From: a phage
Reading direction: 5' to 3' (one strand)
DNA length: 64,000 bases
NCBI GenBank assembly: GCA_018175075.1
Contig: GCA_018175075.1_4100.1
Shown here: in pieces, positions 40,128-61,190 of the stretch
Position numbering within the stretch: the first letter of the stretch is position 1
Layout: every line of letters starts with the position of its first letter
Made by a program: the position numbers and the translations under genes
The notes under the pieces: generated by a model
What the model was told of the DNA's origin: nothing
Databases searched by the model: none
Seen by the model: only the letters and a program-made list of their open reading frames with translations

Positions 40128-40141
40128 GCACCCGGTGGGCT
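40128..40141 (-). repeat. AGCCCACCGGGTGC element, inverted copy
   Basis: GCACCCGGTGGGCT is the reverse complement of the intergenic element found in forward orientation at 49540, 53530, 59062. Confidence 0.45.
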
Positions 40142-42167: not shown

Positions 42168-42196
42168 TTGACTTATTTTGTCAGTACTGGCATAAT
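42168..42196 (+). promoter_or_regulatory. sigma70-like promoter with no ORF downstream
   Basis: TTGACT, 17 nt, CATAAT; downstream is repeat element, not coding. Confidence 0.4.
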
Positions 42197-42219
42197 GTAT
42201 TCATTGGCAGATAAGCCGT

Positions 42220-42247
42220 AGCCCATAGGGTGCGGGAGTGTATCTAT
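42220..42247 (+). repeat. AGCCCA(N)AGGGTGC element, forward copy
   Basis: AGCCCATAGGGTGCGGGAGTGTATCTAT; inverted partner GCACCCGGTGGG at 42279-42290. Confidence 0.45.
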
Positions 42248-42384
42248 AGAAAAATTAGTTTAGTATAGTTACAATTGTGCACCCGGTGGGTTAGCTGTTG
42301 TCATGGGGTATATTATGCCAGTACTGGATAGTGCTGTCAATACTTTTTTAATATTCAGTACTGAAAACTATTTTTAAAAAGTAC

Positions 42385-49473: not shown

Positions 49474-49484
49474 ATGAAAAAAGT

Positions 49485-49507
49485 GGTTGACTTCGGTCAG
49501 CCATTTT
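49485..49507 (+). terminator. rho-independent terminator
   Basis: GGTTGAC-TTCG-GTCAGCC hairpin then ATTTTG. Confidence 0.65.
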
Positions 49508-49539
49508 GCTATTATATATTCATTGAGAGATAGCTCACT

Positions 49540-50937: not shown

Positions 50938-51135
50938 ATGATTAGCATGAAATCAGTACAAAAACAAATAGAAACATTATCAAAAATTAAACGTAAACAG
51001 TACTCGTTAGAATATACAATCAATGGTAACTATCATCTAATGAAAGAAAATAATTTTATAGTCATTGATGAATCATTGCAAATCATTAGTATAGTACTGA
51101 AAGCATTAATTAATGATAGAAAAAAATTAAAATAA
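50938..51135 (+). CDS. hypothetical protein, about 65 aa (AT-rich)
   Basis: ORF; start ambiguous (track start 50932 is TTG). Confidence 0.35.
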   Translation: MISMKSVQKQIETLSKIKRKQYSLEYTINGNYHLMKENNFIVIDESLQIISIVLKALINDRKKLK

Positions 51136-51139
51136 TCTA

Positions 51140-51168
51140 TTGACAATATCCTCCAGTACTGGCATAAT
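51140..51168 (+). promoter_or_regulatory. sigma70-like promoter
   Basis: TTGACA, 17 nt, CATAAT. Confidence 0.5.
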
Positions 51169-51228
51169 ACTTACATCAAGACGAGAACGTCACTAACCCA
51201 TAGGGTGCACAAATGTAACTATATAACA

Positions 51229-51305
51229 TCGATCAATAAATGATCAAAAAAGTACTGGATCAATTTAGCATAAGGCGTATAATTCTGATCAATTCTTGAT
51301 CAAAG
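51229..51305. repeat. cluster of five TGATCAA (GATC) sites
   Basis: GATC at about 51231, 51242, 51258, 51287, 51298 in a non-coding leader. Confidence 0.5.
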
Positions 51306-51464
51306 GCAATATACGCAGTTGAATTTATATAGACAGTACAAAGGCGTTACTATCCGTGGTAATGCTGGTGGATATGTAGTATCATGTGGTTTGAATAAGA
51401 TTAGCACTAGTAGTATTATTGTAGCATTACAGTACTATAGTATTTTTATAATGAGGTTAAAATA

Positions 51465-51722
51465 ATGGCAGTAGGATACGCGAAAGACGGGGCCGAACAA
51501 GACGAGATTAACGCAGTGATTCAGGCCGCCGTTAACCACGCTAGAAAGCAAATTAACGCACAAAGAGAATCACTAGTACATTGCCTCGACTGCGGCGATA
51601 AAATCCCTGAGAATCGACGCCAGGCCGTTATAGGGTGCATGTATTGTATTACTTGCCAGGCGGATCATGATAGTACTTTTAAAAGAGATCCGCGTAATTG
51701 TTGGCATAGATCTATGAGATAA
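51465..51722 (+). CDS. TraR/DksA-family C4 zinc-finger protein, 85 aa
   Basis: C-x2-C-x17-C-x2-C (CLDCGDKIPENRR...CMYCITC) with RKQINAQR upstream, typical of TraR/DksA. Confidence 0.7.
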   Translation: MAVGYAKDGAEQDEINAVIQAAVNHARKQINAQRESLVHCLDCGDKIPENRRQAVIGCMYCITCQADHDSTFKRDPRNCWHRSMR

Positions 51723-53463: not shown

Positions 53464-53477
53464 AAATAATTGAAAAA

Positions 53478-53502
53478 GGGATTGACTCCGGTCAGTCCCT
53501 TT
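53478..53502 (+). terminator. rho-independent terminator
   Basis: GGGATTGACTCCGGTCAGTCCC hairpin then TTT. Confidence 0.65.
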
Positions 53503-53529
53503 GCTATTATATACGCATAGAAACAAATC

Positions 53530-56746: not shown

Positions 56747-56771
56747 GGATTGACTCCGGTCAGTCCCTTTG
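56747..56771 (+). terminator. rho-independent terminator
   Basis: GGGATTGACTCCGGTCAGTCCC hairpin then TTT. Confidence 0.65.
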
Positions 56772-60984: not shown

Positions 60985-61190
60985 AAACTATAACACGAAC
61001 CCAATCATACGGTCTTATCTTGAAATACATGGACTTAATGGTGGATATCAGCAAAGACCTGCCTAAAACTGAAATTGAAGTTGCAAGAGCAGAGATCCGC
61101 ATGTTGGCTGTACTGAACACAAACCATCAGGAAGAGTATGTTCAAGATTGGATTCGATTTTTAATAGAAGATATTAAGAGTAAACTATGA
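60981..61190 (+). CDS. tandem family 2 small protein
   Basis: ATGA coupling; family motif. Confidence 0.55.
   Translation: MKTITRTQSYGLILKYMDLMVDISKDLPKTEIEVARAEIRMLAVLNTNHQEEYVQDWIRFLIEDIKSKL

Follow-up and report, generated by a model that had tools for sequence, protein, structure and literature searches.

In a jumbo coliphage of the 121Q/PBECO4 type (genus Asteriusvirus), five GATC sites are crowded into 71 bp over and upstream of a predicted promoter, P2. Their tight span, the low probability of such a span under random placement, the depletion of GATC in the genome and the bias toward one extended form of the site (GATCAA) together indicate that the cluster is real and unusual. Of the readings considered, the most likely one, though a possibility rather than an expectation, is that the cluster is a protein-binding control region of P2 that is sensitive to methylation. 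The DNA analysed, referred to as the window, is a single stretch of 64,000 nucleotides.

The ~1 kb around the cluster shares 98% identity with Escherichia phage vB_EcoM_JNE01 and 93% with 121Q, and matches 42 records of Asteriusvirus jumbo phages, whose listed hosts are E. coli and Salmonella. The cluster is located inside a direct terminal repeat of ~21 kb, corresponding approximately to 39-60.7 kb of the window, and the region is present twice in records that cover both genome ends. In vB_Ec-M-J it occupies 12.0-12.4 kb, within an annotated direct terminal repeat of 21,525 bp, and in fEgEco12 it occupies 11.1-11.5 kb of a 20,993-bp repeat that was confirmed by restriction digestion (PMC13070987). 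The terminal-repeat stretch is densely packed with sigma70 promoters of consensus type, alongside stem-loops and ORFs of small size. A tRNA scan found no tRNA. A host origin of the cluster sequence was sought in 5,426 E. coli genomes and gave no match. The record of phage EC.P1 (PQ657772.1) stops at window position 51222, 9 bp short of the first GATC, which is probably an arbitrary assembly break.

The five sites lie at 51231-34, 51242-45, 51258-61, 51287-90 and 51298-301, with spacings of 11, 16, 29 and 11 bp and a start-to-start span of 67 bp. The original prediction described five TGATCAA sites within about 75 bp. Five GATC do lie there, but the full heptamer occurs at only three of them (51241, 51286 and 51297), the other two reading CGATCAA and GGATCAA. 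The hexamer GATCAA is common to all five on the plus strand. Local density is far above the average, in agreement with the original prediction, with five sites in 71 bp against one per 562 bp in 121Q, whose complete genome (348.5 kb) was used for the genome-wide counts. The homologue of the cluster is the tightest group of five GATC in that 348.5-kb genome, and the next-tightest group spans 206 bp there and 208 bp in the window.

GATC is generally avoided by the phage: 121Q contains 620 sites vs. 1182 expected under a maximal-order Markov model (O/E 0.52). In the window the tetranucleotide is depleted outside the terminal repeat (O/E 0.49) and not depleted inside it (0.93). Random placement of an equal number of sites reaches the observed span with P = 0.002 for the window, 0.004 for 121Q and 0.017 when only the terminal-repeat part is considered; in order-3 Markov simulations the span was reached in 0 of 300 runs for the window and in 8 of 1000 for the repeat part. 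AA follows only 12% of the GATC in this genome, so that finding it after all five, in one orientation, also deviates strongly from random expectation. Two other clusters in the window, of four GATC each (44209 and 56203), fall within coding sequence and have unrelated flanks.

The features to which the sites belong are as follows.

51137-51466, plus strand: facultative cassette of 330 bp, holding P1, its leader, the GATC cluster, P2 and a 48-aa gene
51140-51168, plus strand: P1, TTGACA-17-CATAAT with a TG upstream of the -10; 11/12 in the promoter scan
51180-51222, plus strand: P1 leader element, consisting of the hairpin GACG-AGAA-CGTC (51180-51191), CCCATAGGGTGC (51197-51208) and TGTAACTAT
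51230-51246, no strand assigned: dyad A, CGATCAATAAATGATCA, GATC sites 1 and 2, 11 bp apart
51256-51283, plus strand: predicted P2 core promoter, -35 TGGATC, 16-bp spacer, -10 TATAAT (51278-51283)
51286-51302, no strand assigned: dyad B, TGATCAATTCTTGATCA, GATC sites 4 and 5, a perfect 7-3-7 palindrome
51319-51465, plus strand: 48-aa gene (gp293 of 121Q), with a TTG start here and a GTG start at the same column in PBECO4
51465-51722, plus strand: DksA/TraR C4 zinc-finger gene, 85 aa (Pfam PF01258, E 5.3e-9, above the cut-off; PHROG 54)

P1 is a strong sigma70-type promoter with a predicted start at ~51175, and it is unchanged in 10 relatives. It leads into the conserved CCCATAGGGTGC leader, with no gene immediately downstream, and no terminator was found between P1 and P2. 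What had been taken for one long leader between the promoter at 51140 and the gene at 51465 is not a plain leader, as the stretch holds both the predicted P2 and a real gene. For the same reason, the placement of the cluster upstream of the TraR/DksA-like gene is correct as to position, but the 48-aa gene and the second promoter intervene.

P2 has a perfect TATAAT as its -10 and a predicted start at ~51290. Positions 51247-51283 (AAAAAGTACTGGATCAATTTAGCATAAGGCGTATAAT) copy, at 73%, a recurrent promoter, AAAAAGTACTTGCA-N-TATAAT (family D4); here the GATC-bearing TGGATC takes the place of the -35 TTGCAA. Because this -35 matches the consensus at only 3/6 positions, P2 of the window was not called by the promoter scan; its PBECO4 counterpart, TTGATC-16-TATAAT, matches at 4/6 in the -35 and was called as a promoter at 10/12. 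Directly upstream of P2, AAAAAAGTA fits the consensus of the proximal subsite of UP elements. The earlier comparison with methylation-regulated promoters holds in so far as it concerns overlap, GATC being present at both the -35 and the +1 of the predicted P2.

The sites are arranged as dyads. Their 17-bp form is TGATCAA-N3-TTGATCA, which sets two GATC 11 bp apart, and GATC-N7-GATC occurs only four times in 121Q, two of these at the cluster. The center of dyad A falls ~52 bp before the predicted P2 start; the right end of the dyad shares one base with the AAAAAAGTA A-tract (51246-51254). Site 3 sits in the P2 -35, and dyad B overlies the predicted start. A second site resembling dyad A, TCGATCAAAAAATGATCTAT, is found at 215,900-215,925 of 121Q and is nearly identical to the PBECO4 version; it is intergenic, between the terminator that follows gp466 and gp467, and adjoins a TATATAAGCTAAATA stretch. 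A search for a wider TGATCA regulon in 121Q returned 60 occurrences of TGATCA, the others being mostly within coding sequence and having no common context. At 121Q 135,374-135,393 (about 39.9 kb of the window), two tandem copies of GTAGTGATCA are followed by GTGAGTACTAGAGTAC, within ~2 kb devoid of annotated genes (121Q 135.2-137.2 kb), toward the left end of the repeat.

The cassette is flanked by 10-bp direct repeats, TTAAAATAAT, at 51127-51136 and 51457-51466. It is missing as one unit in phAPEC6 and UE-S1, in which the DksA-like gene comes directly after the upstream gene; judging from these genomes, it is dispensable. The upstream gene and the 48-aa gene share an ...LK-stop ending and an overlap with the same ATG context. 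Ten isolates carry the cassette in two haplotypes, the 121Q type with five GATC and the PBECO4 type with four. The latter keeps sites 1-3, lacks sites 4 and 5, and has an extra GATC that completes a perfect TGATCAATACTTGATCA over the -35. From the leader to the -10, ~26% of columns differ between the haplotypes, vs. none within GATC 1-3. A third haplotype, found in two metagenome contigs (minus strand; OERM01000014.1, 380-800, and OERD01000139.1, 4450-4870), is of the 121Q type on the left and of the PBECO4 type on the right; the crossover lies just past GGATCAATTT, and sites 1-3 alone remain. These three are therefore invariant in the 10 isolates of two clades and in both contigs. Since they are shared by all haplotypes, the constant core consists of dyad A, retained in 3/3 haplotypes, and the -35 GATC. 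Beyond this core, the two parental haplotypes have one perfect dyad each, built from the same half-site and placed at +1 in the 121Q type, the only one with dyad B, and at the -35 in the PBECO4 type. The carriers effectively represent two independent lineages; a search for further haplotypes found only the 121Q one in IMG/VR and the single recombinant one in the metagenome scan.

Downstream of P2, the ORF at 51319-51465 is evidently a real gene. Between the clades its frame and length are preserved at 65% amino-acid identity, the differences are distributed as 11/7/19 over the three codon positions, and eight codons differ only synonymously. The gene ends in a stop codon that overlaps the DksA/TraR start codon, ATG. 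The product, gp293, forms a separate PHROG (38664), is an ORFan restricted to Asteriusvirus and has no detectable fold family; a search for distant homologues, intended for a test of co-occurrence with the dyads, yielded the two Asteriusvirus alleles only. The annotation of this region can thus be corrected by adding a predicted second promoter and the 48-aa gene between 51140 and the DksA-like gene, as several records miss one or both genes. The 48-aa gene is absent from the annotations of BF17, SP27 and vB_Ec-M-J, and appears in those of SHEFM2K and SD-2_S15 as a shortened 29-aa version accompanied by an antisense ORF. In the PBECO4 record (2068-2342) the DksA-like gene is uncalled.

Adenine methylation is available to these phages from two potential sources. 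Dam and SeqA are present in E. coli and Salmonella, and the listed hosts of the related phages, being E. coli and Salmonella, are Dam-bearing by established knowledge, in keeping with the original prediction. In addition, gp417 of 121Q, encoded outside the window, is an N6-adenine methyltransferase of the Dam family (PF05869, E 7e-32), conserved in the genus (~36 records at >=80% identity) and 32-38% identical to enzymes of Stx phages and T1-like phages. The characterised Dam-family enzymes of Stx and T1-like phages methylate GATC, and we assume the same specificity for gp417 from these ~32-38% identical relatives. A C5-cytosine methyltransferase (gp91, PF00145) is also encoded by 121Q. As regards other tetranucleotides, GCGC is wholly absent (0 vs. 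61 expected in the window, 0 vs. 153 in 121Q), and CCGG (O/E 0.56) and CATG (0.69) are also depleted.

We infer that P2 fires, that the dyads are bound and that binding depends on methylation, starting from the anatomy, the rarity, the partial conservation and the promoter and gene context of the sites as laid out above. In this reading, a small optional operon, encoding the 48-aa ORFan and then a DksA/TraR-like factor predicted to bind RNA polymerase, would have P2 as its gene-proximal early promoter. The dyads would be protein-binding sites that throttle P2 and possibly also read-through from P1. Because every half-site is a Dam target, their occupancy would depend on the state of adenine methylation. 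Entering DNA, fully methylated by host Dam and the Dam-family enzyme of the phage, would have an active P2. Copies made by replication would be hemimethylated and could be bound by SeqA, which requires paired hemimethylated GATC, turning P2 off; alternatively, hemimethylated copies may lose contacts with RNA polymerase. At dnaAp2, SeqA binds clustered hemimethylated GATC and represses ~10-fold (PMC2912659, PMC13337833), and P2 may be shut off in the same manner.

Dam-SeqA sequestration at dnaA P2 and oriC is among the closest known systems: GATC sites are crowded over and around a sigma70 promoter, here a predicted one, and paired at helical-turn distance, the hosts possess Dam and SeqA, and repression in the hemimethylated state would yield a replication-coupled switch (PMC2912659, PMC13337833). 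In contrast to those loci, the cluster belongs to a lytic jumbo phage, lacks DnaA boxes, and has conserved flanks and perfect palindromes. Involvement of Dam and SeqA would explain why GATC is present at every site despite being avoided by the genome, and also the helical-turn pairing and the coverage of -35 and +1. However, both proteins need GATC alone, which leaves the conserved T...AA flanks and the perfect palindromes unexplained. The poor -35 of P2 in the window (3/6), left uncalled by the scan, and the natural variation in site number (5, 4 or 3, the last in a simple recombinant) also count against a control region of this kind, as do the dispensability of the cassette, its effective restriction to two independent lineages and the assumed specificity of gp417.

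Competition between Dam and a regulator offers a second parallel (pap/Lrp, agn43, gtr, opvAB, Mu mom/OxyR, sci1/Fur). As in those switches, GATC lies within putative binding sites next to a promoter, and methylation and binding could be mutually exclusive. Unlike them, the cluster has no OxyR half-site and matches no known regulator motif, and a lytic cycle offers no obvious use for phase variation. Three specific candidates were rejected: an OxyR/Dam phase-variation switch (no ATAG-N7-CTAT half-site at <=1 mismatch in 51200-51310), IHF (WATCAANNNNTTR; a poor fit by eye, with G for W and TGA for TTR) and FNR (TTGAT-N4-ATCAA; by eye, half-site order and spacing are wrong). In terms of class, the element belongs to an already known, ordinary kind.

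A more ambitious version of methylation control, which appears rather unlikely, is that the paired Dam sites act as a replication-coupled timer by which a lytic jumbo phage would tell parental from replicated genomes. The DksA-like factor would then be made only before the onset of replication, and the Dam-family enzyme of the phage would set the mark; perfect 17-bp GATC dyads would have been gained at different positions of one promoter in two lineages. If the dyads are methylation-sensitive, a virulent phage would be reading the replication state of its own DNA and thereby timing an early gene whose product targets host RNA polymerase. If they are not, the region merely adds to the variable promoter cassettes, and its practical value lies mainly in the corrected annotation. 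For comparison, alleles with 5, 4, 3 and 0 GATC sites exist in nature.

The strongest competitor, somewhat doubtful in its own right, is that the cluster is a functionless by-product of mutation, produced in a hyperplastic early region by local duplication of a GATCAATT unit, quasi-palindrome (template-switch) correction that creates perfect inverted repeats, and recombination of haplotypes. Haplotypes with five, four and three sites do circulate, the three-site form being a clean recombinant, and differences between the clades fall in multi-nucleotide blocks. GATCAATT is common to sites 3 and 4, the cassette can be lost and independent lineages are few. The constant core taken alone, three GATC in 31 bp, is statistically ordinary (a tighter triple is found at 61085 of 121Q), and the region is made of recombining promoter/terminator cassettes that resemble promoter-early stem-loops (PeSLs; PMC2839356). 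Against a purely mutational origin, sites 1-3 have remained invariant amid varying neighbors although the genome selects against GATC (O/E 0.52), perfect palindromes with the same half-site arose at two promoter positions, and the clustering is improbable (P = 0.002-0.017) even without counting the flanks.

The likeness to T4-type PeSL cassettes concerns the neighborhood rather than the cluster. Strong sigma70 promoters are fused there to stem-loops or terminators beside small ORFans (PMC2839356, PMC4122927), whole cassettes are inserted or deleted between relatives, and the repeats of the neighborhood make up families D1-D8. The indel studied here differs in being bounded by the 10-bp TTAAAATAAT repeat instead of two PeSLs; the GATC dyads fall outside the PeSL definition, and the GATC cluster itself is no PeSL.

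It is also conceivable, if somewhat improbable, that the dyads are operators of a sequence-specific dimeric protein, from phage or host, that recognizes TGATCAA half-sites, the GATC core being incidental and methylation irrelevant or secondary. Such a protein would account for the flanks and the palindromes. A 7-3-7 palindrome with identical half-sites has the classic shape of an operator for a helix-turn-helix dimer; perfect copies lie over the -35 or the +1 in two haplotypes, and flanks beyond GATC are retained at 5/5 and 3/4 sites. The arrangement of 17-bp dyads overlapping -35 or +1, with an auxiliary site upstream, is likewise that of operator arrays for phage repressors or Cro-type proteins. 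Unlike in those arrays, no cognate repressor was found among the 59 ORFs of the terminal repeat, none of which has a regulator, HTH or DNA-binding Pfam domain, and there is a single locus in the genome. No other promoter-associated TGATCA cluster occurs in 348 kb, a single further site resembling dyad A (121Q 215,908) was found, and the neighboring 48-aa gene is an ORFan with no recognizable fold family.

Binding of the host nucleoid protein Fis to the dyads, which would couple expression of the DksA-like factor to the growth state of the host, is improbable. The Fis motif has a 15-bp core with G at -7 and C at +7, Y-R steps at +/-3-4 and an A/T center, G at +/-8 being inhibitory (PMC4784862). 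GATC-N7-GATC inherently yields the G at -7, the C at +7 and the Y-R steps at +/-3-4. Dyad A (GATCAATAAATGATC) additionally has an all-A/T center and T/A or C at +/-8, as the motif demands (PMC4784862), and strict matches number just five in the 64-kb window, two of them in the repeat part. However, the loose form of the consensus occurs about once per kb, and the match of dyad A is therefore weak evidence. Fis does not require identical GATCAA half-sites, a G/C pair lies at the center of dyad B and of the PBECO4 dyad (dyad B fits the 15-bp core except for this one central G/C), and Fis-like sites do not generally accompany the other early promoters here. As at Fis-regulated promoters, a match to the 15-bp Fis core, Y-R step and A/T center included, lies upstream of P2, in dyad A (PMC4784862); unlike in those promoters, the half-sites are identical and the position is ~-52 vs. 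the classical -71.

Two other explanations fare worse. That the palindromes act in RNA, as a 5' stem-loop stabilizing the P2 transcript or as a structure of the P1 leader, is very unlikely: dyad B would form a 7-bp hairpin at the extreme 5' end of the predicted P2 mRNA, and neighboring promoters do precede 5' stem-loops (family D1), but the predicted folds are not above those of shuffles (z -0.6 to -1.6), the dyad B hairpin is missing in the PBECO4 and recombinant haplotypes, and the P2 start is downstream of both dyad A and the PBECO4 dyad. The cluster is almost certainly not an oriC-like replication origin or a site of origin sequestration, an analogy that had been drawn from its GATC density: five GATC in 71 bp, A/T-rich flanks and a strong promoter upstream do recall oriC, but the nearest DnaA box (TTWTNCACA) is 1.4 kb away (13 in the window vs. 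13.3 expected), the GATC-initiated, A/T-rich 13-mer GATCTnTTnTTTT is absent from 51200-51310 at <=2 mismatches, the whole cassette is missing from the congeneric phAPEC6 and UE-S1, and the phage has a replication and recombination set of the T4 type.

Apart from the question of methylation control, the surroundings of P2 contain several recurrent elements. The window carries 10 copies of the P1 leader element, counting the one behind P1, each ~25 nt past a -10; they were found on both strands at 40128, 40343, 42222, 42279, 44700, 49542, 51197, 53532, 56805 and 59064. Members of this family are ~50 nt long, follow the -10 of a strong sigma70 promoter at a distance of ~7 nt and consist of a small hairpin with a purine-rich loop, the invariant CCCAYNGGGTGC and then TGTAWCTAT; 11 were counted vs. 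0.56 expected by chance. The hairpin stems vary by copy (GUC/GAC, CGC/GCG, GGC/GCC, GAG/CUC, GACG/CGUC). Covariation in this first hairpin is modest, with three pairs changed on both sides in 6/10 copies, a score matched by 8 of 500 shuffles. The element is kept in RaK2, K64-1 and Muenster, and Erwinia phage Hallingskeid retains only the stretch from CCCATAGGGTGC to GATC. Rfam gave no match for the P1 leader or the cluster, either with the whole window at the gathering threshold or with 51100-51500 at E up to 10. The family is possibly a leader RNA or a protein site. At 42194-42318, two promoter-leader units face each other (42222 on the plus strand, 42279 on the minus strand); their predicted transcripts overlap and no ORF lies between them.

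Composite terminator/promoters are found at 49480-49515 and 53475-53510, with similar ones near 56760 and 59020. Each consists of a 12-bp stem-loop followed by a T-run, one arm bearing the -35 TTGACT of a TTGACT-17-TATTAT promoter, an arrangement known as PeSL from T4-type phages. AGTACT is strongly over-represented (283 in the window vs. ~22 expected from base composition; 903 in 121Q); in the terminal repeat, almost all early promoters have it immediately next to the -35, the -10 or both. Outside the window, 121Q encodes a sigma70-family protein with regions 2, 3 and 4 (gp167) and a late sigma factor resembling T4 gp55 (gp591), at 89,267-90,232 and 321,985-322,824. As the phage encodes sigma factors of its own, a promoter class specific to the phage might include some of the AGTACTGAAA-type motifs that lie near early promoters.
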